Positions 1,541-41,971 of a stretch of 64,000 nucleotides of DNA are shown here, piece by piece (positions within the stretch are counted from its first letter, which is position 1; each line of letters starts with the position of its first letter). The stretch comes from Candidatus Woesearchaeota archaeon (GTDB lineage: Archaea; Nanobdellota; Nanobdellia; Woesearchaeales; ARS49). Under the pieces are notes generated by a model. The model searched no databases and was not told the DNA's origin. It saw only the letters and a program-made list of their open reading frames with translations. Where the stretch lies: positions 24,726 to 88,725 of the forward strand of contig JAWCRZ010000002.1 of NCBI GenBank assembly GCA_038868995.1. Direction: 5' to 3'. A program made the translations under genes and the position numbers.

Positions 1541-2812
1541 TTATGCATTGATTATACCGTATCCTATCAGCCGCCATCTTTGCCCTACATTTCTGGACAT
1601 TGTCACCCTTGCGCCTTTGTCAGCGCAGACCGGCTTGCGCAATGCCACTTTTATCAAATTCTTGCCGAGTTCTTTAACAACGCCTACTGTCGCCGCAGAA
1701 TTCACGTTGAGCATGAGCAGTTCTCCCAGCTTTACCGGCTCTACCACTAATTTGTCTTTTGCACCTACAACCCTTTCAAGCAAATGTGTTTCCAGCTGGA
1801 ATTCGTACCAGACCTTTGGTGCATGGCCTTCCAGCACTACCACGCTTCCTGCGAGTTTGTCGCTTTTCACAACGCTGGGGTCAAGGGTTGTCATCGCTGC
1901 TATGCTGCCTCCCGGCACAACTTCTTTCACGCGTTCCCCGCCTGACATGAGAGAAACGACTTTTGTCCTTAACGGCTTCCAGATTTTCTGGTTTTTCTCC
2001 TGAACTTCATATCCTGGAAGTATTTCTATTTCCGCTCCCTCGATAAGCTTTCCCTGCTTCAGGGAACCGCCGAGAATGCCTCCGACCAGTTTGTCCGGAT
2101 ATGTTCCGGGCTTGTTGACGTCAAAGCTTCTTGCCACTAACATTACGGGGTCGGCGTTCACATCGCGATGCGGTGTCTTGAACTTTTCCTGTATTGTCTG
2201 TATGAGAATATCCAGATTAATAGAGTGTATTGCGCTCATTGGGATTATTGGCGCATTCTCGAATTTCGTCCCTTTCAGGAACGCTTTTATCTCGTTATGG
2301 TTTTTCTTTGCCTGTTCTGCTGATACAAGGTCAATCTTGTTCTGCACCACGATAAGGTTGTCAATTCCTACTATTTCAAGCGCCTGCAAATGCTCTCTTG
2401 TCTGTGGCTGGGGGCAGCTTTCTGTTGCGGATATTAGGAGCAATGCACCATCCATTATTGCCGCGCCGCAGAGCATTGTTGCCATCAAGCTTTCGTGGCC
2501 CGGCGCATCAACAAGTGAGACTTTTCTCAGGAATTCCGCTTCGCCGCCACATTTCGGGCATTTTTGCGAGACGCCGTAAGCATCAGAAGCTTCGCATTTT
2601 TTGCACTTGTAAAATGAGACGTCTGCATATCCGAGCCGTATGGTAATGCCTCTTTTTATCTCCTCTGAATGTGTGTCTGTCCATTTGCCAGAAAGTGTTT
2701 GTACAAGGGTTGTCTTGCCGTGGTCCACATGTCCTATCATGCCTATGTTGATTTCCGGCTGTATTTGTGTTTTCGGCGTTTCTTCTGTTTTTGCTTTCTT
2801 TCTGGGAGCCAT
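1541..2812 (-). CDS. eif2g: translation initiation factor aIF2 gamma subunit
   Basis: G1 motif GHVDHGKTTL, DAPGH and NKIDL motifs, the zinc-knuckle CxxC..CxxC insertion typical of a/eIF2-gamma, EF-Tu-like domains II and III. Confidence 0.95.
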   Translation of the reverse strand: MAPRKKAKTEETPKTQIQPEINIGMIGHVDHGKTTLVQTLSGKWTDTHSEEIKRGITIRLGYADVSFYKCKKCEASDAYGVSQKCPKCGGEAEFLRKVSLVDAPGHESLMATMLCGAAIMDGALLLISATESCPQPQTREHLQALEIVGIDNLIVVQNKIDLVSAEQAKKNHNEIKAFLKGTKFENAPIIPMSAIHSINLDILIQTIQEKFKTPHRDVNADPVMLVARSFDVNKPGTYPDKLVGGILGGSLKQGKLIEGAEIEILPGYEVQEKNQKIWKPLRTKVVSLMSGGERVKEVVPGGSIAAMTTLDPSVVKSDKLAGSVVVLEGHAPKVWYEFQLETHLLERVVGAKDKLVVEPVKLGELLMLNVNSAATVGVVKELGKNLIKVALRKPVCADKGARVTMSRNVGQRWRLIGYGIINA

Positions 2813-14859: not shown

Positions 14860-15141
14860 ATGGCAGACGACAACAGTATTTTCATCGGGAACAAGCCGTT
14901 TATGAATTACGTTACAGGCGTTGTCATGCAGTTTACAACACAGCAGGCCTCTGAAGTTATTATAAAAGCGCGTGGGAAATTCATCTCAAGGGCTGTTGAC
15001 GTTGCAGAGGTTGCTTCAAAGCGTTTTCTTGACAATGGCGTTTCAGTGCGGGACATCCGCATAAATTCTGAGGAGTTTACTAACAAGGAAGGCAGGAATG
15101 TGAGGGTTTCCACTATTGAGATTTCCCTTAAGAAATTGTAA
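14860..15141 (+). CDS. albA: DNA/RNA-binding protein Alba
   Basis: IFIGNKPFMNYVTGVVMQF...EVIIKARGKFISRAVDVAEV...RNVRVSTIEISLKK is the classical Alba signature. Confidence 0.9.
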   Translation: MADDNSIFIGNKPFMNYVTGVVMQFTTQQASEVIIKARGKFISRAVDVAEVASKRFLDNGVSVRDIRINSEEFTNKEGRNVRVSTIEISLKKL

Positions 15142-24111: not shown

Positions 24112-24226
24112 GGGCGTGTAGTCTAGTGGATAGGACGTTGGGCTTCGGTCAGCAGCTGCTATGAAGGCCTCTGAGCAATCTGTTGCAGGATACCCAAAAA
24201 CCGGGGTTCAAATCCTCGCACGCCCG
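24112..24226 (+). tRNA. tRNA-Arg (anticodon UCG) with a 43-nt intron (24149..24191) at the canonical 37/38 position; CCA not encoded
   Basis: Manual cloverleaf. Acceptor GGGCGTG/CACGCCC. D-arm GTCT-AGTGGATA-GGAC. Anticodon stem TTGGG/CCCAA, loop CTTCGG|intron|A. T-arm CGGGG-TTCAAAT-CCTCG. Discriminator G, followed by a T-run. Confidence 0.7.
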
Positions 24227-24722: not shown

Positions 24723-25103
24723 ATGAACAAGCAAGCTCTGGGGCTGTTAATGCTTCGCATCGGATTGGGCGGTGTCTTTTTATGGTTTGGCACGGATAAG
24801 TTTATTCATCCTGATATCTGGGTGAATTATATTCCTCAGTGGTTTCCGATGCCGGTCTCAACCGCAATATTTATCTTCTTGCTCGGTATTGCAGAGTCTA
24901 TTATGGGTGCCGCGGTATTGGCGGGCTTTTTCACGCGCGCTGCAGCAACTACGGCAGCATTGATGCTCATCCCGATCATAATTTCATTGGGTTATAACGA
25001 GATTGGCATCCGTGATTTCGGCTTGTTTATGCTCGCCGTGGGAATAGTTTTCCTTGGCGCGGGCGAATTCAGTGTTGATAAATTGCGAGGTGGTAAATTA
25101 TGA
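24723..25103 (+). CDS. DoxX-family membrane protein, paralog B
   Basis: LLMLRIGLGGVFLWFGTDKF... with 4 TM helices. Divergent from paralog A across the tRNA locus. Confidence 0.75.
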   Translation: MNKQALGLLMLRIGLGGVFLWFGTDKFIHPDIWVNYIPQWFPMPVSTAIFIFLLGIAESIMGAAVLAGFFTRAAATTAALMLIPIIISLGYNEIGIRDFGLFMLAVGIVFLGAGEFSVDKLRGGKL

Positions 25104-25534
25104 AAAAACTGTTTGTATTGATTGCCTTGCTGGCAATATTGGTTGCGTGCGCTCCAGAGCAGCCGGTGCAGCCGCAGGTGCAGGTTGAGCCGCAGGCGCA
25201 GTTCAGGGTTAATCCGCCTGAACAAAAAGTTGAGGCAGTCGAGCCGCCTGCAAGGGTTGGAACAGCGCCTTCAGAGCCAAAGACGGTGAATGTTGACATT
25301 GTGAACTTTGCGTATGTTCCTGCTTCAGTGAAAATCAGGGTTGGCGACACTGTGACGTGGAAACAGGTTGACCGGATTAAGCACACCGTGACCATCGTTT
25401 CAGGTCCTGAATCGTTTGATTCCGGTCTTTTATCAGCCGGTCAGACGTTCAGCCATACTTTCACAAAGCCGGGAACGTATGTTTATAAGTGCACGCCTCA
25501 TCCGAGAATGACTGGCGAGATTGTTGTAGAATAA
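25100..25534 (+). CDS. cupredoxin (plastocyanin/halocyanin-like type-1 blue copper protein), lipoprotein-type signal
   Basis: Lipobox LAILVAC. Copper-ligand spacing ...IKHTVT...YKCTPHPRMTGEIVV (His ... Cys-x2-His-x2-Met). ATGA overlap with the upstream DoxX gene. Confidence 0.75.
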   Translation: MKKLFVLIALLAILVACAPEQPVQPQVQVEPQAQFRVNPPEQKVEAVEPPARVGTAPSEPKTVNVDIVNFAYVPASVKIRVGDTVTWKQVDRIKHTVTIVSGPESFDSGLLSAGQTFSHTFTKPGTYVYKCTPHPRMTGEIVVE

Positions 25535-29766: not shown

Positions 29767-29840
29767 GGGGTTGTGATCTAACTTGGTTATGATGCATGGT
29801 TTGGGACCATGTCGTCCCGGTTCAAATCCGGGCAGCCCCA
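29767..29840 (+). tRNA. tRNA-Pro (anticodon UGG), intron-less; CCA not encoded
   Basis: Acceptor GGGGTTG/CAGCCCC (one G-U). D-arm ATC-...GG...-GAT. Anticodon stem CATGG/CCATG with loop TTTGGGA. T-arm CCCGG-TTCAAAT-CCGGG. Discriminator A. Confidence 0.85.
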
Positions 29841-30188: not shown

Positions 30189-30947
30189 ATGAGGGGATTC
30201 GTATTGCTGGTGGCGTTGTTGTTTTTGCCTGTTGTTCACGCGCAGGTCTATCCGCCCTGCAATTATGATTCTGACTGCGAGTCGGGTTATTACTGTATTA
30301 ATAATCAGTGCAGGGAGCCCTGCCAGAGCGATGATGATTGTGATTCTCCTGCTACCTGCCAGCCGGATGGTTATTGCGGAGCTAATTTTATTGAGTGTGG
30401 CAATGGTGATATTGATCCCCCTGAAGAGTGTGATGACGGCAATAATGATGATGGCGACGGCTGTTCTGCCAATTGCATTAGGGAAAAAGACAGTGCTTTT
30501 GTCTTGTTTGACCTCGCTCAGGTTCATAACTTGTTTTTCATCAAGGTTATGGATTTGTTGCATATTGTTAAGGATGCTTTGTTCCAGTTGGAGGTTAAGA
30601 TTGTTGCCATTCAGCTCGCAAGCAATCCGTGCAATGAGCAACCGGTTATTTTCTGGTTCCCTTCCGGTTCTGGTCCTGGGCATAATCCGTATGGCAAGCT
30701 GAATGAGATTGACTGGATTATTAAATCTTTTATTCACACAATGGAGGGCGGCTTGTCAGCTAATGCGAACATGTGGAATGGCATTAGCAGTTCTGAGATT
30801 GATGCTGCTAAAGACATGCTTGCGCTTGCTGATGCTGCTATTGCCGAAGGGAATTTCCGTGAGGCATTTGAGTGCAAGTGTCTTGCTTTGAAGAAGATTA
30901 ACAACATTGAGGACACGACTGTTTCGTGCAATGGTGCTGAGGTTTGA
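30189..30947 (+). CDS. secreted cysteine-rich protein with Myxococcus-type Cys-rich repeat (TIGR02232-like)
   Basis: Signal MRGFVLLVALLFLPVVHA. CNYDSDCESGYYCINNQCREPCQSDDDCDSPATCQPDGYCG. IECGNGDIDPPEECDDGNNDDGDGCSANC. Confidence 0.65.
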   Translation: MRGFVLLVALLFLPVVHAQVYPPCNYDSDCESGYYCINNQCREPCQSDDDCDSPATCQPDGYCGANFIECGNGDIDPPEECDDGNNDDGDGCSANCIREKDSAFVLFDLAQVHNLFFIKVMDLLHIVKDALFQLEVKIVAIQLASNPCNEQPVIFWFPSGSGPGHNPYGKLNEIDWIIKSFIHTMEGGLSANANMWNGISSSEIDAAKDMLALADAAIAEGNFREAFECKCLALKKINNIEDTTVSCNGAEV

Positions 30948-30957
30948 GGTGATAATT

Positions 30958-32274
30958 ATGAAATGGTTGTTTTTTTTGTTGGTGTTGAGCGTTGGTGTCA
31001 GCGCGGTTGTTAATGGTAATGATTTGCCAGTGAATCTTAATAAGATTGAATGCTCTCAATGGATTACGGGAACTACAGGGCTGAATCCTAATTATCTTCA
31101 GTATTTCTTGGAGAAGCGTCTTATTTTGTTTGGCAGTGAAGATTTAATTTTCCCTATTATAAATGCTGTTGCGTGTGACGCCACTGTCAACAGGCATTTT
31201 TTCGAGGTTAATGGTATTTTTGCAAATTGTGGTCCTGTTGAGGAGGGAAGTACGTATTTCCCTGATAACCCTTGCGCGTGTACTTTGACGAGTTCTTTGT
31301 CCCTTGAAGGCAACGATCCCAATTTGCTTGTCCATTTGACCAAGGAGGACAGGGAGATTATTCTTCCTAATGCTTGGGCTAGATTAAAAGTCGCGATGGA
31401 TTGCCTTATTGAAAATTATTCGCCTGAAGACGATGAGCCGGTGATTGTTGGTTCTGCCACTTGGTTTAATGATGTAAAGCCCTGTTATGTGAGTGCTATT
31501 AATATCTTGGGAATGTTGGAGAATATTTACAGCCGTACTCCTGAAGCGTTTTTCCTTGTGCAGAAATTGCAGGAGCTTGAGGTCGAGCTGATGCACAAGC
31601 TTGCTTTAGAGGACCAGAAGGCCAAGGCTGCTTGGATAGTTCTTCCGAACACATGCAATGTGTTTCCCATCAATGCTCATACTTCCGAAGGCATTTTGAA
31701 GAAGAACATATTCCTGAGTCCTAATGCGGCTATGACTTTCTGGAATGCTGTTTGGGGAAACTGTGGAGGAATAGGAAATTCTTTTGTTCAGTCGCAGATG
31801 GAGTGTTTTGAGCAGCATAAGATTGATATTTTGAATAATGCTTTGAAAGTTGTCTGCGACCCGCTTGATGGAGAAGAAGGTGATATTGAGGAAGTGTTCT
31901 TTTTGAGCCCGTTATTGTTAGGCAATTGTAATAACGCTGTAACAGACATGGAATGCCGGTGCAAGGATGCCTTTATCTCAGCCGCGTTGAATATTGACCA
32001 GTGCTTTAGTGATGGCGACTGTCCTGGTGGTGGTATAGATACAGATGCTGCAAGCTTGAACAGTATTAACACTTTGCAAAGTAATGGCTGCTTGCAATGC
32101 CTGGAAAGAAGTAATGCGCACGGTGGTGGTACGACATTTACTGGTTCTGGAAGTAGCGACTCGCCTACCGGCGCTTTTGCTTTTAGAGCTTCTGGGAATG
32201 GCGGCGCTTTTGCTTTGGTCTTGGCTGCTGCGTTGTTGTTTGCAGCATTGTTATTCATTTTGAGAAAGCGCTGA
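30958..32274 (+). CDS. secreted protein with C-terminal TM anchor and basic tail (439 aa)
   Basis: SD-like gaggtga upstream of the ATG. Signal MKWLFFLLVLSVGVSA. Many Cys residues. C-terminus ...GNGGAFALVLAAALLFAALLFILRKR (a PGF-CTERM/archaeosortase-like tripartite tail). Confidence 0.65.
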   Translation: MKWLFFLLVLSVGVSAVVNGNDLPVNLNKIECSQWITGTTGLNPNYLQYFLEKRLILFGSEDLIFPIINAVACDATVNRHFFEVNGIFANCGPVEEGSTYFPDNPCACTLTSSLSLEGNDPNLLVHLTKEDREIILPNAWARLKVAMDCLIENYSPEDDEPVIVGSATWFNDVKPCYVSAINILGMLENIYSRTPEAFFLVQKLQELEVELMHKLALEDQKAKAAWIVLPNTCNVFPINAHTSEGILKKNIFLSPNAAMTFWNAVWGNCGGIGNSFVQSQMECFEQHKIDILNNALKVVCDPLDGEEGDIEEVFFLSPLLLGNCNNAVTDMECRCKDAFISAALNIDQCFSDGDCPGGGIDTDAASLNSINTLQSNGCLQCLERSNAHGGGTTFTGSGSSDSPTGAFAFRASGNGGAFALVLAAALLFAALLFILRKR

Positions 32275-35200
32275 TTTTCTTTTTTCAAGTTCTTTTTTCA
32301 GTTCTTCATTTTTGATTTTATCGCACAGTTCTATCCAATCTTCGTATAATGCATGAATTAATGGTTCATCTATTTGTTTTAGAAGGTTTTCCGCTTCTTG
32401 GTATAATTCCATTGCTTTTTGATAATCTTTGGTGTGCACGTATGTTCTTCCCAGTCCAAAACGCGCGGTTCCTCTTAGCTCTGTATGCCTTAATCTGTCG
32501 GCTATTTTTATGGCTTTTTCTGCTGCTTGTTTTGCTTGTAGGATTTCTCCTTTTTTAATCAGTGCATCGGCAAGATTGTTGTAAGCCAGTCCTAAAATGT
32601 AGCTGTCTCCGAGTGGTTCTGATAAAGCAATGGCTTCTTGTATTGTTTTTATTTTTTCTTCTCCTTTGAATTCCATTCCTGCGTTTACTTTGATAAGGCT
32701 TTCCAAATATTTGTTGCCTGTTTTTTTTGCAAGCACAACACCTGCTTCGTAATGAGGTTTTGACTTTTCTAAATCATTCAAATAAAGTAAAAAGGAGTTT
32801 ACGTGTAGTTTCAGCTGCAATTCATCTTTCAAACTTTCTGGCAGTTCATTTGAAATCTGAAATCCTGCTTCAAATGCTTGCAGTGCTTTTTGGTTTTTTC
32901 TTAAGCGTTGGTACGCAAGTCCTTTCGCGTTTTGCGCCAGCCCGTATATGTATTTGTGTTGTGTTGTCGGTGTTGTTATTTTGTTTATTCTTTGTTCAAG
33001 TTTTTCTCCATATGTTAATCCTGTTTTGTTTTGTTGGTTGTCCGTGAACCATTTTTGCGCTTTCCAGAGGTATTCTGTTGCTTTGTCGTCGTCATCTCCG
33101 TGTTCGTAGTCCCATGCGAGTGCTGTCAGTTGGTCTTCTCCGTCTCCGTATAGTTTTTTTCTGCTGTCGCCTATTTTTGTATGCGCCCGCGCCCTTGGTA
33201 TCGGCCTTATTGCTGTTTCGTATATTGCGTTTTTGACAAGGTTGTGCTTGAATTCTATTGTTCCGTTGTGTGTTCTTAGAAAGTCGGCTTTTTCCAGCGC
33301 GTGTATTGCATGGTCGATTTCTCCTTGTGCTTTGCCGAGTGCTTCTTCAAGCAGTCGTTTTGGGAATGTTTCTCCGAACATGCACGCTGCGTACTGCAGC
33401 ACTTCCTGTTGTTCCGGCTCTTTGATTTGTCTGTACCTTTCGAGCACGAGTTTTTCTATGCTGTCAGGTATGGTTATCTCGGCTGTTTTTATGAGCGTGC
33501 CGTTTTGTATGAACTGGTTGTTTAGGAGGTAGTTTACCACTTCTTCTATGTACAGCGGTATTCCTTTGCTTTGCTGGAGGACGAACCGGGCGAGTTTCTC
33601 GTCCGGGACTGCATTAATAAGGTGTTCTGTGAGTTGTGTTGTGCCTTGTTCGCTGAGTTCTCCGAGTTCTATTTTTTCCCCTGTTAGTATCTGTTCCGCT
33701 ATTTCCCTGAATTCTTTGTCTTTTGTTTTTTCTCTTGGCCTGTAGTTGGTGAGAATTCGCGCTTGCGGTAGTTGTTCGTGGAGCCATTGTATTGTTTGCA
33801 AGCTTTTTTCGTCTGCCCAGTGTATGTCGTTGAATATGAGCAAACTTTTTTCCTGTCCGATTAGCTCCAGCAGGAGTTTTCTCCTGGCTTCTTCGAGTTG
33901 TTTTCCTGTCTGGACTGGTTTTTCATAGCTGAGTCCGAGCCAGTGGTGGGCTATTCTTCTGTTTTCTTCATCTGTTATTTTTTCAAGTTTTTTTCTTGTT
34001 TCCGGGTCTGCTGTTGTTATGCCTAAAGCGTTTCTTACAAGGTCCTGGAGCAGGTATTCTGGAGTGTCTTTTGCCTGTTGTGCTGCTGATGCTCTGTAGA
34101 CGTTTTTGTTGATGTTTTGTATGTAGATTTCTTCTGTTTTTTTGGTCAGCTCTGTTTTTCCGTATCCCGCGTCTGCTATGATGTGCGCTATTTTTGATTC
34201 CTGGTTGATTATTTCTGTTAGTTTTTTTATCTCATTATCTCTGCCTACGAGCGTCTTCTTGGTTGCCCGTTTGGTTAGCCCTTTCGCCGGCTTTATTGGC
34301 CTGTAGACAGCTACCGGCTCTTCTATGCCTTTGAAGGGCATTTTGCCGATGTATTCCGCTCCTTCCGGTATTGTCATCAGCACCTGTTCATCGTCATCTA
34401 TTGCTTTTTTCATGAGCCGCGCTGCAAGGTTGACGTGATTGCCAAGCATTGTGAACGTTCTTCTTTGCCTTGTGCCTAGTGGCCCGACGTATACTTCACC
34501 GTGTGCCACTCCGATTCTGGGGCTTTTGTATTCGAGTTCTGCTTCTTCCAATAGTTCTTTTAGGTGTTCGTTTTGCCTTAGCCATTTGTCGAGCTGTACT
34601 GCTGTTTCTCTTGCTGCTTCGTAATGCTCGTGTTTTTCTCCTGCGTAGTCCACCCTGCTTCTGAAGCGCGCTATGAAGACCGTGCGGTACAGCTTGTCAA
34701 TTTCTCCGTTGAATTGTTTTTCAAGCTCTCTTAGTGTTTCAAAGTGTGTTTGGTATGCCTCGGTCAGTTTTTGCGGGTCTTCTTCGTGGTGTCTTGCCAA
34801 GCTCCTTAGCGTTGGGAGGTATCCGAACATGAGTGTTGCGTGTTCCATGCCTCCTGTTGTTTGGGTGAAGATTATTTCTCTTGTAAGTGGCGGGAAGAAT
34901 CCAAGCAGGTGCTTTATGCGAGCTTCGAGTTTTGGTATTTGTTCTTCATACCATTTTTTGTTTTCCGGGTGTTGTAGTGGCTGCGGTTGTTTTGTCGTTA
35001 CGCAAACGGGTGCTTCTTGGCTCAACTCGTATGTGTGTTCTGCAACCCGTCTGAATTGCAAAGACGGATCTTCAATGATTTGTCTCGTTGTTTCGTCAAT
35101 CCAGATTTTTCCCGGCTTTGATTCCTCCTCAAGTTTGTATGCGTGCTCCAGCGCTGGCCCTCCTACGACGTTTATTCTGCGCTGTCCGTCTTCCACCACG

Positions 35201-35628
35201 CCTGAGAATATGGTTCCTGTTGCCATGCCTTGCCTCACGCTGAGCTTTATTTCTTTCTTGTTGGCTGTTTCTTCCGGCAGGGCGAGTATTTCGCGCGCTA
35301 TTTCAGCCGCTCCATAGACCGCATTTGTGGGGTTTTTGAATACCGCCACTCCCGCGTCACCCTCGTAATACTTTATTGTACCTTCATATTGGTTTTCGAG
35401 CAGGTCGAAGATTGTGTATATCTCTCCTATTCTGTTTGTCCATGCGTCTGTCGCCATTTTTCCTTCCTGTAGTTTTCTTTGAGTTATTTCTGTGAATCCT
35501 TTGAGGTCGCTTTTCCAGACGGTTCTTTTGTTTACTCTTGCAGGTTCGTCTATGTCTTTTGGAAGGAAGCTTTCAAGGTAGCGTGCATTCCGAAGTAGTT
35601 TTTCATATTTTTGTTGGATGTCTTCCAT
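32251..35628 (-). CDS. multidomain signalling protein: tandem class-III nucleotidyl (adenylate/guanylate) cyclase homology domains, STAND/AAA+ P-loop NTPase and TPR repeats (1125 aa)
   Basis: Cyclase domain 1: DLKGFTEIT...YEGDAGVAVF...VRQGMATGTIFSGVV...INVVGGPALEHAYKLEEESKPGKIWIDETT. Cyclase domain 2: PRIGVAHGEVYVGPLGTRQRRTFTMLGNHVNLAARLMKKA...VLMTIPE. Walker A IIADAGYGKTELTKK. C-terminal TPR-like helices (LAYNNLADALIKKGEILQAKQAAEKAI...). Confidence 0.75.
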   Translation of the reverse strand: MEDIQQKYEKLLRNARYLESFLPKDIDEPARVNKRTVWKSDLKGFTEITQRKLQEGKMATDAWTNRIGEIYTIFDLLENQYEGTIKYYEGDAGVAVFKNPTNAVYGAAEIAREILALPEETANKKEIKLSVRQGMATGTIFSGVVEDGQRRINVVGGPALEHAYKLEEESKPGKIWIDETTRQIIEDPSLQFRRVAEHTYELSQEAPVCVTTKQPQPLQHPENKKWYEEQIPKLEARIKHLLGFFPPLTREIIFTQTTGGMEHATLMFGYLPTLRSLARHHEEDPQKLTEAYQTHFETLRELEKQFNGEIDKLYRTVFIARFRSRVDYAGEKHEHYEAARETAVQLDKWLRQNEHLKELLEEAELEYKSPRIGVAHGEVYVGPLGTRQRRTFTMLGNHVNLAARLMKKAIDDDEQVLMTIPEGAEYIGKMPFKGIEEPVAVYRPIKPAKGLTKRATKKTLVGRDNEIKKLTEIINQESKIAHIIADAGYGKTELTKKTEEIYIQNINKNVYRASAAQQAKDTPEYLLQDLVRNALGITTADPETRKKLEKITDEENRRIAHHWLGLSYEKPVQTGKQLEEARRKLLLELIGQEKSLLIFNDIHWADEKSLQTIQWLHEQLPQARILTNYRPREKTKDKEFREIAEQILTGEKIELGELSEQGTTQLTEHLINAVPDEKLARFVLQQSKGIPLYIEEVVNYLLNNQFIQNGTLIKTAEITIPDSIEKLVLERYRQIKEPEQQEVLQYAACMFGETFPKRLLEEALGKAQGEIDHAIHALEKADFLRTHNGTIEFKHNLVKNAIYETAIRPIPRARAHTKIGDSRKKLYGDGEDQLTALAWDYEHGDDDDKATEYLWKAQKWFTDNQQNKTGLTYGEKLEQRINKITTPTTQHKYIYGLAQNAKGLAYQRLRKNQKALQAFEAGFQISNELPESLKDELQLKLHVNSFLLYLNDLEKSKPHYEAGVVLAKKTGNKYLESLIKVNAGMEFKGEEKIKTIQEAIALSEPLGDSYILGLAYNNLADALIKKGEILQAKQAAEKAIKIADRLRHTELRGTARFGLGRTYVHTKDYQKAMELYQEAENLLKQIDEPLIHALYEDWIELCDKIKNEELKKELEKRKSALSQNE

Positions 35629-35846: not shown

Positions 35847-36209
35847 CTATTCGTCAGGCACGCACATATCTGTCTCTGGATTAAAAACTCCGCAGACCTT
35901 GTCAAGTTGTCCTCTTCGCGTGCAGAGCGGGGTTTTGACTGCTGTTTCCTCATCTCCCTTGATGCCGCACAGGAATTTGCCCATTACTGTCACGCAAACG
36001 CAGTCCTGCGGCTTGAGCACGTTGTTTTCCAGTATGCACCTTACCTGTCCGGTTGTGCAGGCGGGGTCAATGCAGTAGCCCTGTTTGTAGACAAATCCTT
36101 CAGGGCAGCCGTTGATGATTTGCGCTCCTGTCATCTGCCGGATGGTGATTATTGCAAGAATGCCCACAAGTATGACTGCTGCCAGTATCACCCCTTTTTC
36201 AATGTTCAT
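35847..36209 (-). CDS. small secreted cysteine-rich protein (120 aa, 12 Cys)
   Basis: N-terminal TM/signal ILAAVILVGILAIITI. Cys spacing NGCPEGF..YCIDPAC..RCIL...DCVC...LCG...LCT...VCG...MCVPDE. Confidence 0.5.
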   Translation of the reverse strand: MNIEKGVILAAVILVGILAIITIRQMTGAQIINGCPEGFVYKQGYCIDPACTTGQVRCILENNVLKPQDCVCVTVMGKFLCGIKGDEETAVKTPLCTRRGQLDKVCGVFNPETDMCVPDE

Positions 36210-36557: not shown

Positions 36558-38006
36558 ATGAAAAAGGATGAGACTCATGGAATTACCGTGAAAAAGTCGG
36601 AAGACATTTCTGAATGGTATACTCAAGTAATTCAAAAAGCAGAGCTTGCCGAATACACTGGCGTCTCCGGCTGTATGATTTACCGGCCGAGGGTTTATGC
36701 TGTTTGGGAGAAGCTTCAATCATTTTTTGATGCTGAGATTAAGAAACTGGGCGTGAAAAACTCTTACTTCCCTCTTTTAATTCCTGAGTCATTGCTCAAC
36801 CGTGAGGCAGAACATGTTGAGGGCTTTGCTCCTGAAGTGGCTTGGGTGACGCATGGAGGGCATACAAAGCTGGCAGAGCGTCTTGCAATCCGTCCCACAT
36901 CAGAAACAATCATGTATGAAGCTTATGCAAAGTGGGTGAGGAGTTATCGCGACCTGCCGATGAAGCTCAACCAGTGGAACAATGTTGTTCGCTGGGAGTT
37001 TAAGCATCCTATACCTTTCCTGAGAGGCAGGGAATTTCTTTGGCAGGAGGGCCATACCATTTTTGCCGATAAGGCGTCTGCAGAGAAGGAAGTTCTTGAT
37101 ATTCTTGAGCTTTACCGTCGTGTTTTTGAGGAAATGCTCGCAGTGCCTGTAATAAAGGGCATCAAGAGTGATAATGAGAAGTTTGCCGGTGCTGATTACA
37201 CGACATCTGTTGAAACAATGGCGCCGAGCGGCAAGGCAGTGCAGGCAGCTACCAGTCATCATCTGGGCCAGCGTTTTGCCAATAGTTTCGGCATTTCATT
37301 TCTTGATGAGAAGGGTGAGAAGGCATTGCCTTATCAGAACAGCTGGGGCTTTTCGACAAGAAGCATTGGCGCGATGATTTTGTTCCATGGAGACGACAGG
37401 GGCTTGGTGATTCCTCCAAGAGTTGCTCCTGTGCACGTGGTTATTGTTCCAATTATGTTTGATGACAGCAAGGAAAAAGTTATCGCAAAATGCCACGAGG
37501 TTGCGAAACATTTGAGAAATGCTGGAATAATTGTCGAAGTTGATGACCGTGACAATTATACTCCCGGCTGGAAGTTCAATGAGCACGAGTTGAAAGGCGT
37601 CTGCATCCGTATAGAGATTGGCCCCAAAGACCTTGAAAGGAATCAGGTGGTCATGGTTAGAAGGGACACCGGCAGGAAGGATTTTATCAAGATTGCCGAC
37701 CTTGCTTTTGTTGTTCCAAAAGAGCTTGAAAGAATGCAGCAGGACTTGTTTGACAAGGCAAAAAAGTTTCTTGATGATAACACCGTTCACGCCAAAACGT
37801 GGAAGGACTTTGAGAAAGGCGTTGCTGAAAGAAAGCTTATTTACGCTCCTTGGTGCTGTACTGCAGAGTGCGCCGAGAAAATCAAGGCAGAGACGGAGGG
37901 CGTTAAGTGCCTTAATCTTCCATTCAGCGAGAAAAAGCCGTTTGCGAAGTGCATCAAATGCGAAAAGCCGGCCAAGAATGTAGCCATCTTTGCTAAATCT
38001 TACTGA
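36558..38006 (+). CDS. proS: prolyl-tRNA synthetase, archaeal/eukaryotic type
   Basis: Class II motifs (FRxE-like REFLWQEGHT, GRF/ RDTGR regions). Archaeal-type C-terminal zinc-binding domain (CCTAEC...CIKCEK). About 480 aa. Confidence 0.92.
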   Translation: MKKDETHGITVKKSEDISEWYTQVIQKAELAEYTGVSGCMIYRPRVYAVWEKLQSFFDAEIKKLGVKNSYFPLLIPESLLNREAEHVEGFAPEVAWVTHGGHTKLAERLAIRPTSETIMYEAYAKWVRSYRDLPMKLNQWNNVVRWEFKHPIPFLRGREFLWQEGHTIFADKASAEKEVLDILELYRRVFEEMLAVPVIKGIKSDNEKFAGADYTTSVETMAPSGKAVQAATSHHLGQRFANSFGISFLDEKGEKALPYQNSWGFSTRSIGAMILFHGDDRGLVIPPRVAPVHVVIVPIMFDDSKEKVIAKCHEVAKHLRNAGIIVEVDDRDNYTPGWKFNEHELKGVCIRIEIGPKDLERNQVVMVRRDTGRKDFIKIADLAFVVPKELERMQQDLFDKAKKFLDDNTVHAKTWKDFEKGVAERKLIYAPWCCTAECAEKIKAETEGVKCLNLPFSEKKPFAKCIKCEKPAKNVAIFAKSY

Positions 38007-38717: not shown

Positions 38718-39230
38718 ATGCAAAAGGGATATTTCAATGTTATGCGCTTGGTATTTTTGCAAATATGCTTGTTGCTGCTCGTGGCTTGCAGCACGACTTC
38801 CAGTCGTCCAATCATTGCGGACATCATTAATGTTGAAGGAATGCCTGTTGGTGTCGCTTCTTTATATGAGGAGCGTGGAGGGTTGGCATTATATATGTCA
38901 GTTCAAACTCTATCTCCTGGTGTTCACGCTTTGCACATCCACGATTCTGGCGTTTGTGAGCCGCCTGATTTCATAACTGCCGGCGCGCATTACAATCCTT
39001 TCAACAAAGAGCACGGTTTTGATAATCCAAAGGGCGCTCATGCCGGCGACCTTCCGAATTTTGAGGTCGGCTCTTCAGGAGGCGCGCACGTTGAGCTTTT
39101 TGTTCAGAATTTGTACCTTTCGCAAGTTATCGGACGTTCGTTAATAATTCACGCAGACCCTGATGATTACGTCACAGACCCTTCAGGCAACAGCGGTGCG
39201 AGGATTGCGTGTGCTGTGTTGAAGCGATAA
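38718..39230 (+). CDS. sodC: Cu/Zn superoxide dismutase, lipoprotein-type signal
   Basis: HALHIHDSGVCEPPDF.AG.HYNP (Cu-binding His cluster), GAHAGDLPN, IIHADPDDYVTDPSGNSGARIACAVL (conserved C-terminus with disulfide Cys). Lipobox LLLVACS. Confidence 0.85.
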   Translation: MQKGYFNVMRLVFLQICLLLLVACSTTSSRPIIADIINVEGMPVGVASLYEERGGLALYMSVQTLSPGVHALHIHDSGVCEPPDFITAGAHYNPFNKEHGFDNPKGAHAGDLPNFEVGSSGGAHVELFVQNLYLSQVIGRSLIIHADPDDYVTDPSGNSGARIACAVLKR

Positions 39231-39292: not shown

Positions 39293-39931
39293 ATGGAAAA
39301 TGATATGAAAGTGCAGAAAGGAACAACTACAGTCGGCATTATGTGCCGTGATGGGGTTGTTCTGGCAGCAGACAAAAGGGCAACAGCCGGCTTTGTTGTA
39401 AACAAGCGTACGCAGAAGATTCACAAGATTACTGACAATATGGCTGTTACGATGGCTGGTTTGGTATCGGATGCTCAATTATTGGTCAAGCTTATCCGTG
39501 CCGAGGTTAAGTTGAAGGACTTGTCTACATTAAGAACAAGCACGGTTAAGGAAACGGCAAACCTGCTCGCTGGAATGCTCTATATGAATTTGAGAAAAAT
39601 GTCAATGGTGCCTGGCATTGTGAGTTTCCTGCTTGGCGGTTATGACCACGAGGGCCACCATTTGTGGGATTTGGGCATTGATGGCAGCACGACTGAGGTT
39701 GAGGATTATGTTTCTGATGGTTCTGGAAGCATTTTTGCGTTGGGCGTTTTGGAAGCCCTGTACAAGAAGGGAATGTCTGTTGAGGAAGGCGTCAAGCTGG
39801 CAGTGAAGGCGATTGGCGCGGCATTGCAGCGTGACGTGAACACCGGCAACGGTATTGACGTTGTTGTGATTGACAGCAAGGGCGTCAGGACTGTTCTGGA
39901 GAAGGATTTGAACATCAAGATTGAAGTGTAA
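39293..39931 (+). CDS. psmB: proteasome subunit beta
   Basis: Propeptide followed by TTTVGIMCRDGVVLAADKRATAG (active-site Thr1 motif), ~210 aa. Confidence 0.9.
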   Translation: MENDMKVQKGTTTVGIMCRDGVVLAADKRATAGFVVNKRTQKIHKITDNMAVTMAGLVSDAQLLVKLIRAEVKLKDLSTLRTSTVKETANLLAGMLYMNLRKMSMVPGIVSFLLGGYDHEGHHLWDLGIDGSTTEVEDYVSDGSGSIFALGVLEALYKKGMSVEEGVKLAVKAIGAALQRDVNTGNGIDVVVIDSKGVRTVLEKDLNIKIEV

Positions 39932-40033: not shown

Positions 40034-41971
40034 GTGAGGGAACCCAATTCGGCATTGGACAGAATACCAAAATCAACTATGGCAGAGATTGTAAAAGAAA
40101 TAATGAAGTTTTTGCCTGCTGACAAGGTCAGCGACGTGGCATTTGAAGGTGCCAACATTGTCCTTTACACAAAGAATAAGGATTTCTTTTTGGATAATGA
40201 GGGTCTTATCAAGCAGGTTGTTAATGAATTCAAGAAAAGAGTAGAGTTAAGGCCTGACCCGTCTATCACAATGTCGCAGGAAAAGGCTGAGAAGGAAATC
40301 AAGAAATTGATGCCTGAGGATGCTGGAATTTCCCAGATTCTTTTTGACCCTGACCGTTCGATTGTGATTATTGAAGCTGAAAAGCCCGGGCTTGCCATTG
40401 GCAAGCAGGGTTCTTTGCTGAAGGAAATTCGTGAAAAGATTTTTTGGATTCCAATTATCAGGAGAACTCCTGCACTGCGTTCTCAATTAATTGAAAACAT
40501 CCGTGCAGTTCTTTTTGAGCATTCTGATTATCGCAGGAAGTTCCTTGACAAGGTGGGCCATCGTGTTTATGACGGCTGGATGCGTGAGAAGAAGAATGAG
40601 TGGATTAGGGTTACTCATCTTGGCGCTGCAAGGCAGGTTGGCAGGAGCTGTATTTTTCTGCAGACGCCCGAGTCAAGAATCCTGCTGGATTGTGGAATAA
40701 ACGTTGCTGCAGAGGGTCCTGAGGAATATCCTTTGCTTGACGCTCCTGAGTTTAACATCCAGCAGTTGGACGCTATTGTTCTTTCCCACGCCCATGTCGA
40801 CCATTCCGGCTTTATTCCTTATCTTTACAAGATGGGCTTCAGGGGCCCTGTTTACTGCACTGAGCCGACAAGGGACGAGGCCGCTTTGTTGATGCTTGAT
40901 ATGGTCAAGATTATGAAGTCGGAGAACAAGGAGCCGATTTATGATGCTGAGGATGTCAAGCAGTTTGTTTTGCACTGCATTACTTTGAACTGGGAGGAGG
41001 TTTCTGACATTACTCCTGATGTCCGCCTAACGTTGTACCCTGCTGGGCATATTTTGGGCAGTTCAATGGCACACTTGCATATTGGCAACGGTTTGCACAA
41101 TCTTCTTTACACGGGTGATTTGAAGTATGGCAAGACGCCTTTGCTTGACCCTGCAGCAACTATTTTCCCACGTCTTGAAACGGTTATTATGGAAGGGACG
41201 TATGGAGGCAAGACGGATATCGGCATTCCTTCGCACGAGGCAGACGCCTTGTTGTGCAATTACATCAAGGAAACCTTGAAACGTGGCGGTAAAGTACTTA
41301 TGCCTGTGCTTGGTACTGGAAAGGCGCAGGACCTGATGGTCATGATTGAGGGGATGGTGCGTAGGGGCGAGCTTGACCCAATTCCTGTTTATATTGATGG
41401 TATGGTTTGGGACATTACTTGCATTCACACTGCCTATCCAGAGTACTTGAACGCAAATCTGAGAAAGCTTATCTTTCATAAGGACCAAAACCCGTTTCTG
41501 AATCCGATTTTCAAGCGCGTTGGAAGCGCCAAGGAGAGGATGCAGGTGATAGAGGAGACTGGTCCTGCCGTTATTATGGCTACTTCCGGCATGATGGTTG
41601 GCGGTCCTTCTGTTGAATATTTGAAACATCTTGCTGATAATCCGAAGAACAGCTTGATTTTTTCTTGTTATCTTGGTGAAGGCACGCTTGGCCGCAGAAT
41701 CTTTGGCGGCGAGAGGGAGCTTATTTTCAAAAAGGGTGTCGGCCAGGAGGTTGTTACTATTAAGATGGAAGTGGTTAAGGTTGCCGTGTCAGACCATTCT
41801 GACAGGAAGCAGTTGATGAATTTTGTCTTCAAGTGCCAGCCGCGTCCGAAGAAAGTGATTGTGCAACACGGTGAAAGCACAAAAGTGCTTGACCTTGCCT
41901 CCGCCATCCACAAGCTGGGAAGAATTGAAACAGCAGCGCCCAAGAACCTGGAAACAGTGCGCATCAAGTAA
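40034..41971 (+). CDS. aCPSF1/FttA: KH-domain beta-CASP metallo-beta-lactamase ribonuclease
   Basis: Two N-terminal KH-like segments (IGKQGSLLKEIREKI), MBL motif HAHVDHSG, beta-CASP motifs, C-terminal HGE. The real ATG is probably MAEIVKE at ~40079; the six-frame ORF starts at a GTG. Confidence 0.9.
   Translation: MREPNSALDRIPKSTMAEIVKEIMKFLPADKVSDVAFEGANIVLYTKNKDFFLDNEGLIKQVVNEFKKRVELRPDPSITMSQEKAEKEIKKLMPEDAGISQILFDPDRSIVIIEAEKPGLAIGKQGSLLKEIREKIFWIPIIRRTPALRSQLIENIRAVLFEHSDYRRKFLDKVGHRVYDGWMREKKNEWIRVTHLGAARQVGRSCIFLQTPESRILLDCGINVAAEGPEEYPLLDAPEFNIQQLDAIVLSHAHVDHSGFIPYLYKMGFRGPVYCTEPTRDEAALLMLDMVKIMKSENKEPIYDAEDVKQFVLHCITLNWEEVSDITPDVRLTLYPAGHILGSSMAHLHIGNGLHNLLYTGDLKYGKTPLLDPAATIFPRLETVIMEGTYGGKTDIGIPSHEADALLCNYIKETLKRGGKVLMPVLGTGKAQDLMVMIEGMVRRGELDPIPVYIDGMVWDITCIHTAYPEYLNANLRKLIFHKDQNPFLNPIFKRVGSAKERMQVIEETGPAVIMATSGMMVGGPSVEYLKHLADNPKNSLIFSCYLGEGTLGRRIFGGERELIFKKGVGQEVVTIKMEVVKVAVSDHSDRKQLMNFVFKCQPRPKKVIVQHGESTKVLDLASAIHKLGRIETAAPKNLETVRIK

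Follow-up and report, generated by a model that had tools for sequence, protein, structure and literature searches.

A putative sAC-type adenylyl cyclase with STAND and TPR modules encoded on a Woesearchaeota contig

Do archaea encode a class III adenylyl cyclase? The question is raised by a 64,000-nucleotide stretch of contig JAWCRZ010000002.1 (positions 24,726 to 88,725; assembly GCA_038868995.1) from a Candidatus Woesearchaeota archaeon. This stretch, hereafter the window, carries a complete gene for a protein with tandem class III cyclase domains, a STAND NTPase and a TPR region. Cyclic AMP (cAMP) has been measured in several archaea, and a 2023 review lists no characterized archaeal protein that makes, degrades or binds it (PMC10249747). 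The archaeal ‘class IV cyclases’ are in fact triphosphatases (PMC10249747), and the census of Galperin found neither class III cyclases nor GGDEF proteins in sequenced archaea (PMC1183210). By 2018 only a single archaeal GGDEF domain had won acceptance, and contamination was suspected where archaeal contigs carried bacterial-type signalling proteins (PMC5847659). The two cyclase domains of the Woesearchaeota protein divide one set of catalytic residues between them and are predicted to fold like human soluble adenylyl cyclase (sAC, ADCY10). We estimate a probability of roughly 0.7 that the protein actively makes cAMP, as an sAC-type adenylyl cyclase specific for ATP, and that its STAND/TPR module gates this output.

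Domain order, catalytic residues and predicted fold

The gene is a single unbroken open reading frame (ORF) with an ATG start (Table 1), and the identical protein is present in NCBI as ‘MAG: adenylate/guanylate cyclase domain-containing protein [Candidatus Woesearchaeota archaeon]’. Pfam matches the cyclase family PF00211 (Guanylate_cyc) to two stretches of the whole protein (E 1.3e-18, 67.7 bits against a cutoff of 21.9). Each cyclase homology domain (CHD) also exceeds the gathering score when scanned alone: CHD1 (residues 33–197) at 45.1 bits (E 1.1e-11) and CHD2 (residues ~261–411) at 30.6 bits (E 3.2e-7). The linker that joins them is modelled by AlphaFold2 (AF2) as a low-confidence loop (205–223) and two helices (224–242 and 247–255). 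Downstream, AAA_16 matches residues 460–625 (40.2 bits against a cutoff of 32.6), and TPR_12, TPR_8 and TPR_2 match residues 1015–1085, all over their cutoffs. The Pfam scan thus bears out the two cyclase domains, the Walker-A NTPase and the C-terminal TPR array proposed in an initial annotation of the DNA. The protein has no transmembrane segments and would be soluble, like sAC.

The same annotation described two complete cyclase domains, each with its own FT and GD motifs, and here the alignments disagree. CHD1 has only the metal-binding Asp pair, Asp41 and Asp91, in the motifs KSD41LKGFT and EGD91AG, which align with the metal-binding Asp of CyaB and of the sAC C1 domain. The positions of the remaining catalytic set (Lys/Thr/Asn/Arg) are occupied in CHD1 by Y87, V154, E161 and K165. 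CHD2, in contrast, has only this set (Lys312, Thr393, Asn400 and Arg404); it has lost both metal-Asp positions (Y270 and T316) and reads MFGYLPTL and KLYRT in place of the FT and GD motifs. In the alignment to CyaC (1wc0), the CHD2 motif IDKLYRT (IDK312LYRT) lies opposite VDKFVGD and FTMLGNHVNLAARL lies opposite FTAIGPSVNIAARL. The segment FT393MLGNHVN400LAAR404L aligns with this same CyaC sequence and with YTVIGQKVNLAARM of sAC C2. All six catalytic residues are therefore present, divided over both domains, rather than missing from both as in the degenerate scaffold that the initial annotation had considered. CHD1 and CHD2 are, as far as their sequences tell, complementary halves that would form one ATP-type active site and one degenerate pocket.

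The pattern of conservation is consistent with this division of labor. Among nine archaeal homologues with identities down to ~26%, every one that covers a catalytic position keeps it, with either Thr or Asp at position 393 (Asp in homologues P0129 and P0130). The reciprocal positions drift freely in the same nine proteins, both in CHD1 (161 and 165) and in CHD2 (270 and 316). A kept catalytic set next to drifting reciprocal positions is the pattern expected from selection for one working site, and the asymmetry between the CHDs argues against an inert scaffold. This suggests that the full catalytic set is selectively maintained. Furthermore, the Lys312/Thr393 pair corresponds to the adenine pair of CyaB, CyaC and sAC and predicts ATP specificity. 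Guanylyl cyclases have instead a specificity pair of the Glu/Cys type.

An AF2 model of residues 1–455, based on the aligned sequences of 36 tandem proteins, has a mean pLDDT of 92.8 and a pTM of 0.90. Its best 24 Foldseek matches in the PDB are all human sAC (E down to 1e-26), with TM scores of 0.70 (query-normalized) and 0.69 (target-normalized) at full length on both sides. Because the scores are this similar in both directions, the whole C1-linker-C2 unit superposes on sAC. They are followed in the ranking by the soluble C1-C2 domain of human AC9 and by 6yii, a tandem cyclase-like ATP-binding protein from P. aeruginosa. Sequence profiles point the same way. For example, the profile of the 36 tandem proteins aligns with sAC (4clf) in one collinear stretch (7–435 against 15–468, E 2.4e-73) and matches single-domain cyclases far more weakly (CyaB, 1e-37). 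A profile of only five Woesearchaeota proteins still places sAC first (E 2.8e-11), with a C1 stretch followed by a C2 stretch. An intramolecular pseudo-heterodimer like that of eukaryotic cyclases, already proposed in the initial annotation, is the best supported of its claims.

The degenerate pocket differs from that of sAC. In the alignment of the five-protein profile, sAC Lys95 and Arg176, which we take to be the bicarbonate-site residues, align to Tyr87 and Tyr164 of the Woesearchaeota protein. Both residues being replaced by Tyr, we rejected an sAC-like regulation by bicarbonate, and activation of that kind is not predicted. The two tyrosines are conserved across the archaeal family, which suggests that the dead pocket still has some role.

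The second half of the protein has the parts of a STAND module: a P-loop core, a helical arm and a winged-helix region. The GK[TS] of the Walker A motif (490–492), D601 and D606 of Walker B, and R630 are invariant in the nine archaeal homologues and at least 90% conserved in the 36 tandem proteins. The full-length AF2 model (pLDDT 87.3) continues into unbroken helical hairpins at 831–1121, a superhelix that is presumed to be a sensor or partner-binding arm and whose PDB sequence matches are GPSM2/LGN and consensus TPR proteins. Foldseek matches the STAND-TPR part to Pyrococcus PH0952 (6mfv, E 4.6e-13 over 679 columns), Avs3 (8dgc, 6.6e-9), Apaf-1 (1.4e-8) and MalT (4.4e-8), and also to CED-4. 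The STAND region (457–891) aligns as well with TIGR03903, the TOMM system kinase/cyclase fusion (E 2.5e-28). We rejected membership in that family: the 98.5 bits lie far under its cutoff of 705.75, the match covers the STAND region only, and the protein has no kinase domain.

These features are best explained by a mechanism in which the CHD pair of a single chain packs head-to-tail as a pseudo-heterodimer. CHD1 would contribute the metal-binding D41 and D91, and CHD2 the adenine-recognizing Lys312/Thr393 and the transition-state Asn400/Arg404. One interface pocket would then convert ATP to 3',5'-cAMP and pyrophosphate. The symmetry-related pocket, lined by Tyr87 and Tyr164, would be catalytically dead and may be a regulatory site. 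The cyclase module is tethered ~40 residues upstream of the STAND P-loop NTPase, which carries the TPR sensor arm. On the model of MalT, Apaf-1, Avs, PH0952 and the autoinhibited full-length sAC, we propose that the arm, on binding a ligand or another protein, would trigger nucleotide exchange and oligomerization and thereby switch cyclase output.

Family, archaeal host and conserved neighborhood

An exhaustive HMMER scan with residues 1–455 over 1.84 billion representative proteins returned 3648 proteins at E <= 1e-3, 132 at E <= 1e-10 and five, the close family, at E <= 1e-30. Most of the best 150 matches are 1200–1450 residues long and align either in two stretches or in one match across both cyclase domains, which suggests that they are tandem proteins. 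A word-indexed search with the same residues alone gave six weak single-domain matches and missed the known relatives. The close and intermediate relatives (P0002–P0005, P0127/P0275, P0129, P0130 and P0277) are ~1120–1170 residues long and, where a source is named, come from Ca. Woesearchaeota or ‘Nanoarchaeota’. Their identities range from 55% down to ~26% within the archaeal clade and are 20–26% to the bacterial tandem proteins. The named, more distant relatives are all bacterial (Ca. Leptofilum, Pirellulaceae, Gaiellaceae and Verrucomicrobia).

The family thus appears to be a small, deep clade confined to Woesearchaeota, and its internal divergence indicates long residence in the lineage rather than a recent arrival. 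The bacterial tandem proteins are nearer to sAC (profile E 2e-73) than is the archaeal clade (E 3e-11). The clade therefore carries little information on the origin of sAC and is best described as a divergent side branch and not as a candidate ancestor of the eukaryotic enzyme. A 5.9-kb contig assigned to an ‘uncultured Methanosarcinales archaeon’ (locus L003, CAYSMN010000056.1) also has a homologue of the cyclase gene. The gene upstream of this homologue shares 73% identity with the counterpart in the syntenic Woesearchaeota locus L001, and the downstream gene has a tail of the Woesearchaeota pattern. Because of this synteny, L003 probably comes from Woesearchaeota and was mis-binned into a metagenome-assembled genome of Methanosarcinales.

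The host is archaeal, as the initial annotation had it: Woesearchaeota are placed in the DPANN/Nanobdellati archaea, and the window has five archaeal markers, three of which (archaeal-type prolyl-tRNA synthetase [ProRS], proteasome beta subunit and FttA) lie 1–6 kb from the cyclase gene. In a comparison of composition, the GC content of the gene (0.435) and that of its third codon positions (GC3, 0.420) are inside the window range. Synonymous codon usage is modestly atypical (Jensen-Shannon divergence [JSD] 0.085 against ~0.03–0.065 for most long genes), and that of the neighboring Cys-rich genes is likewise atypical. Given the ordinary GC and GC3, the modest codon deviation and the depth of the family in Woesearchaeota, a recent horizontal transfer marked by composition finds no support.

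Sequence downstream of the cyclase is available for six loci: the window, L001, L003, L004, L009 and L010. A convergent gene lies directly downstream in all six and overlaps the 3' end of the cyclase by 4–30 nucleotides in the five loci with coordinates (Table 1; all but L003). In the window its product is a Cys-rich surface protein that carries a signal peptide and ends in a tail of the form SPTGAF...TM...RKR, where TM is a transmembrane segment. The tail recurs in six of six loci as [ST][PI]TG[AG]x, a hydrophobic helix and an Arg/Lys run. The window copy scores 19.2 with the GlyGly-CTERM model TIGR03867, just below the cutoff of 19.7. It looks like a sorting signal in Woesearchaeota, either of an undescribed kind or similar to GlyGly-CTERM. 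The 259-residue secreted protein encoded next to it scores 34.9 bits with TIGR02232 (cutoff 20.8) and is 41–46% identical to the products of L001 15949–16569 and L004 10900–11535, where the order is kept. Indeed, both Cys-rich genes have identical order and orientation in L001 and L004, and a homologue of the 447-residue protein is also tail-to-tail with the cyclase in L009. The flanks of the compared loci contain no homologues of other window genes, so the conserved unit consists of the two surface-protein genes and the cyclase.

The initial annotation had placed the cyclase after the two Cys-rich genes, downstream of tRNA-Pro, and suggested that it arrived with that block. The minus-strand cyclase gene is in fact convergent with them, not downstream. 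The notion of a block holds in that the Cys-rich genes and the cyclase are conserved together across Woesearchaeota loci; the internal identities of 26–55% speak against its being recent. The tRNA-Pro gene is not supported as an integration site and is not a conserved block border, as it lies on the opposite side of the cyclase in L001 and none is within reach in L004. Similarly, an ORF for a 120-residue protein upstream of the cyclase was rejected as a block member, having no homologue beside the cyclase in other loci. Its presence means that the 930-bp gap between the cyclase and ProRS genes is not empty. The conserved arrangement may reflect a functional link between the cyclase and the surface-protein genes.

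Alternative readings and other features of the window

Several observations weigh against an active, STAND-gated adenylyl cyclase. The protein has diverged strongly from characterized cyclases (15–17% identity to sAC) and widely from the bacterial tandem proteins, and the best-known regulation of sAC is not transferable to a site with tyrosines for K95 and R176. In the Walker motifs, Ala or Ser replaces the first glycine of A, and Asn replaces the first acidic residue of B. The full-length pTM of 0.61 leaves the placement of the cyclase relative to the STAND module uncertain in the model. Finally, Pfam finds no cyclic-nucleotide-binding, GAF or CRP-type domain and no recognizable cAMP phosphodiesterase among ~55 scanned proteins of the window.

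Such divergence could mean that the tandem CHDs bind ATP without cyclizing it and serve as a nucleotide-sensing or scaffold input to the STAND/TPR module. The ‘class III adenylyl cyclase-like ATP-binding protein’ of P. aeruginosa (6yii; E 1.3e-15, TM 0.59) is a tandem precedent for this, and protein scans of the window found no cAMP effector nearby. A pseudo-cyclase nevertheless seems rather unlikely, given that the six canonical residues are conserved over the archaeal clade while the reciprocal positions drift, and that sAC structures match the model much better than 6yii does. A cyclase acting on another substrate (a guanylyl, pyrimidine or promiscuous enzyme) is conceivable to the extent that class III specificity rules are imperfect and that PF00211 spans adenylyl and guanylyl cyclases alike. 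The adenine-type pair at positions 312 and 393, which is not of the Glu/Cys type even where Asp replaces Thr, makes it distinctly improbable. A bacterial origin of the gene, on a contig that is chimeric or mis-binned, would fit the exclusively bacterial names of the distant relatives and the somewhat atypical codon usage. However, archaeal ProRS, proteasome beta and FttA genes flank the cyclase, and aIF2-gamma and Alba lie in the same window. Archaeal markers also accompany homologues on other contigs, one of which is 188 kb long and has an archaeal-type ribosomal S15. Several homologues are labelled Woesearchaeota or Nanoarchaeota, and neither the GC nor the GC3 of the gene stands out. We regard contamination or chimerism as very unlikely, to the point of being negligible.

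The layout of the protein also recalls the antiviral Avs proteins, which join an N-terminal effector to a STAND NTPase and a C-terminal TPR sensor. The TPR arm would then sense a viral protein, the NTPase would oligomerize, and the cyclase would be the effector that makes a cyclic-nucleotide alarm, as in Pycsar or CBASS. In addition to the structural match to Avs3, PADLOC gives partial matches to PycC (best E 1.1e-11). These span just 50–110 residues of the generic cyclase fold, however, and the neighbors (surface proteins, ProRS and superoxide dismutase) have no cyclic-nucleotide-binding effector domain, so we rejected membership in Pycsar. We also rejected membership in Avs, as no PADLOC Avs model matches at E <= 1 and the likeness to Avs3 is generic and structural only. 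No gene for a cyclic-nucleotide-activated effector adjoins the cyclase, whose neighbors are housekeeping and surface-protein genes, and the Lys/Thr (or Lys/Asp) pair predicts ATP rather than pyrimidines. Furthermore, the fixed place beside the same surface-protein genes in six of six loci is unlike that of mobile defense genes. The neighborhood not being a defense island, an antiviral STAND sensor stays an unlikely, minority possibility.

The preferred reading as an active sAC-type adenylyl cyclase invites a more speculative extension, which we consider doubtful: the clade may be the first bona fide lineage of archaeal cAMP synthases, in which the STAND/TPR cyclase would sense a cue from a host or from contact and cAMP would control the attachment surface of the symbiont, as reflected in the tail-to-tail pairing with surface-protein genes. 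A more radical alternative is that the cAMP would be made for delivery into the host cell.

The window has other features of note (Table 1). The GGDEF protein claimed in the initial annotation is real, with strong matches to PF00990 and TIGR00254 (142 bits against a cutoff of 37.4). It has a long helical N-terminus and the signature GGEEM, not GGEEF, and its gene sits between those for aIF2-gamma and phosphoglucomutase. GGDEF domains are nearly absent from archaea (PMC5847659, PMC10249747). Two further Cys-rich, apparently secreted proteins have no Pfam match, and it seems that the genome is rich in Cys-rich surface proteins. The synonymous codon usage of the 537-residue one is the most deviant in the window after that of gene g33. 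The length of a second tRNA gene (115 nucleotides) suggests that it contains an intron; tRNA introns are common in archaea.

A cell-surface glycan cluster codes for a GDP-mannose 4,6-dehydratase, several GT2 and GT4 glycosyltransferases, two sulfatases, a type I phosphodiesterase-family protein and two PMT_2 mannosyltransferase-like membrane proteins. It also includes a PAPS-reductase-domain protein adjoining an EF-Tu-like GTPase, which resemble a CysD/CysN pair. A Cu/Zn superoxide dismutase with a lipoprotein-like N-terminus and a plastocyanin/azurin-type cupredoxin, the latter beside DoxX-family membrane proteins, are oxygen/redox genes that are unexpected in Woesearchaeota. These archaea are usually regarded as anaerobic.

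Table 1. Positions of the cyclase gene, its parts and the other features discussed, numbered in the window unless another locus is named.
Feature	Position	Strand	Basis or remark
Complete cyclase gene, 1125 aa (tandem class III cyclase, STAND NTPase, TPR)	32251..35628	-	ORF/translation, Pfam
CHD1, C1-type half, residues 31–202	35023..35538	-	PF00211; alignments to CyaB 3r5g and sAC 4oya
Asp41	35506–35508	-	Metal-binding, CHD1
Asp91	35356–35358	-	Metal-binding, CHD1
Interdomain linker, residues 203–258	34855..35022	-	AF2 secondary structure and pLDDT
CHD2, C2-type half, residues 259–445	34294..34854	-	PF00211; alignments to CyaC 1wc0 and sAC residues 381–420
Lys312	34693–34695	-	CHD2 set
Thr393	34450–34452	-	CHD2 set
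Asn400	34429–34431	-	CHD2 set
Arg404	34417–34419	-	CHD2 set
STAND NTPase module, residues 458–830	33139..34257	-	AAA_16, STAND region of TIGR03903, Foldseek
Walker A ADAGYGKT, residues 485–492	34153–34176	-	
Walker B LLIFNDIHWAD, residues 596–606	33811–33843	-	
Arg630	33739–33741	-	Conserved
All-helical, TPR-like C-terminal superhelix, residues 831–1125	32254..33138	-	Pfam TPRs, AF2 model
Cys-rich surface protein, 447 aa, convergent with cyclase	30931..32274	+	Alternative TTG start 30907
Secreted protein with cysteine-rich acidic repeat, 259 aa	30168..30947	+	Alternative TTG start 30108
3' overlap, window	32251–32274		24 nt
3' overlap, L001	13469–13498		L001 coordinates
3' overlap, L004	8366–8369		L004 coordinates
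3' overlap, L009	8442–8462		L009 coordinates
3' overlap, L010	8035–8052		L010 coordinates
ORF of 120 aa, N-terminal hydrophobic anchor, 12 cysteines	35847–36209	-	218 bp upstream of cyclase
tRNA-Pro (TGG), beside block	29767..29840	+	ARAGORN, Rfam
Archaeal-type ProRS	36558–38006		Archaeal marker
Proteasome beta subunit	39293–39931		Archaeal marker
Archaeal termination factor FttA/aCPSF1	40079–41971		Archaeal marker
aIF2-gamma	1541–2812		Archaeal marker
Alba	14860–15141		Archaeal marker
GGDEF protein, 470 aa	3417–4829	-	PF00990, E 1e-36
Cys-rich, apparently secreted protein, 537 aa	15939–17552	+	
Cys-rich, apparently secreted protein, 1356 aa	18547–22617	+	
Second tRNA	24112–24226	+	Rfam, 55.6 bits; not reported by ARAGORN
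Plastocyanin/azurin-type cupredoxin	25100–25534	+	
Cu/Zn superoxide dismutase	38718–39230	+	
Cell-surface glycan cluster	about 41971–62920		

Comparison with known cyclases and STAND proteins

What is new in the Woesearchaeota protein is the host domain; the design is already known from animals (sAC/ADCY10) and bacteria. The sAC-type C1-C2/STAND/TPR design thus appears to be present in all three domains of life. With its full, apparently maintained catalytic set and its place on an unambiguously archaeal contig, the gene is a specific candidate archaeal adenylyl cyclase that can be cloned, although its uncultured DPANN host is not among the archaea in which cAMP was measured. Our literature searches found nothing relevant that links Woesearchaeota with adenylate cyclase, and nothing useful that joins sAC to STAND, NTPase or TPR except one paper (PMC3475452). 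Specific to the archaeal lineage are the Tyr-lined pseudo-site, the compact size and the conserved pairing with surface-protein genes.

Among STAND proteins, PH0952 of Pyrococcus horikoshii, MalT, Avs3 and Apaf-1 share with the Woesearchaeota protein the common fold of NTPase, arm, winged helix and repeat sensor. They have other N-terminal effectors or none, and in no case a cyclase, so the likeness is limited to the switch module. The actinobacterial cyclase-ATPase-TPR/HTH regulators of the Mycobacterium tuberculosis Rv0386 type contain a single complete CHD per chain and must homodimerize to form two active sites. They and many other AC/AAA_16/TPR proteins resemble the Woesearchaeota protein in the fusion of an N-terminal class III cyclase to an AAA_16 STAND module and helical repeats. 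Unlike the Rv0386 type, the archaeal protein has a duplicated, sub-functionalized CHD pair that would make one site in a single chain.

Closer in design are the bacterial sAC-like proteins with tandem cyclase, AAA_16 and TPR domains (e.g., P0009, P0010 and P0039 (Ca. Leptofilum)). They have the same four-part architecture and C1/C2 residue split, and their alignment with the window protein extends over the whole length (~1000–1200 columns). They differ in being longer (1200–1480 residues), and the surface-gene neighborhood belongs to the archaeal clade. An sAC-like enzyme of Chloroflexus is activated by bicarbonate, according to the passage of PMC11006738 that cites Kobayashi et al. (2004).

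Human sAC/ADCY10 (PDB 4clf, 4clt and others) is the best structural match and the best sequence-profile match among known structures. Like the Woesearchaeota protein, it has a C1 metal half followed by a C2 half with Lys/Thr/Asn/Arg in one chain. The spacing of CHD2 (K-x-x-x-x) is canonical by eye and presumably lacks the small C2 insertion of sAC. The archaeal protein is also shorter (1125 residues against about 1610). In human sAC a P-loop (516–523) is reported directly after C2 and an autoinhibitory motif, together with putative TPRs (PMC3475452); full-length sAC is ~10-fold less active than C1-C2 alone (PMC11006738). The Woesearchaeota protein appears to resemble sAC in this layout, with the P-loop ~40–50 residues past C2 and TPR-like repeats beyond (PMC3475452).

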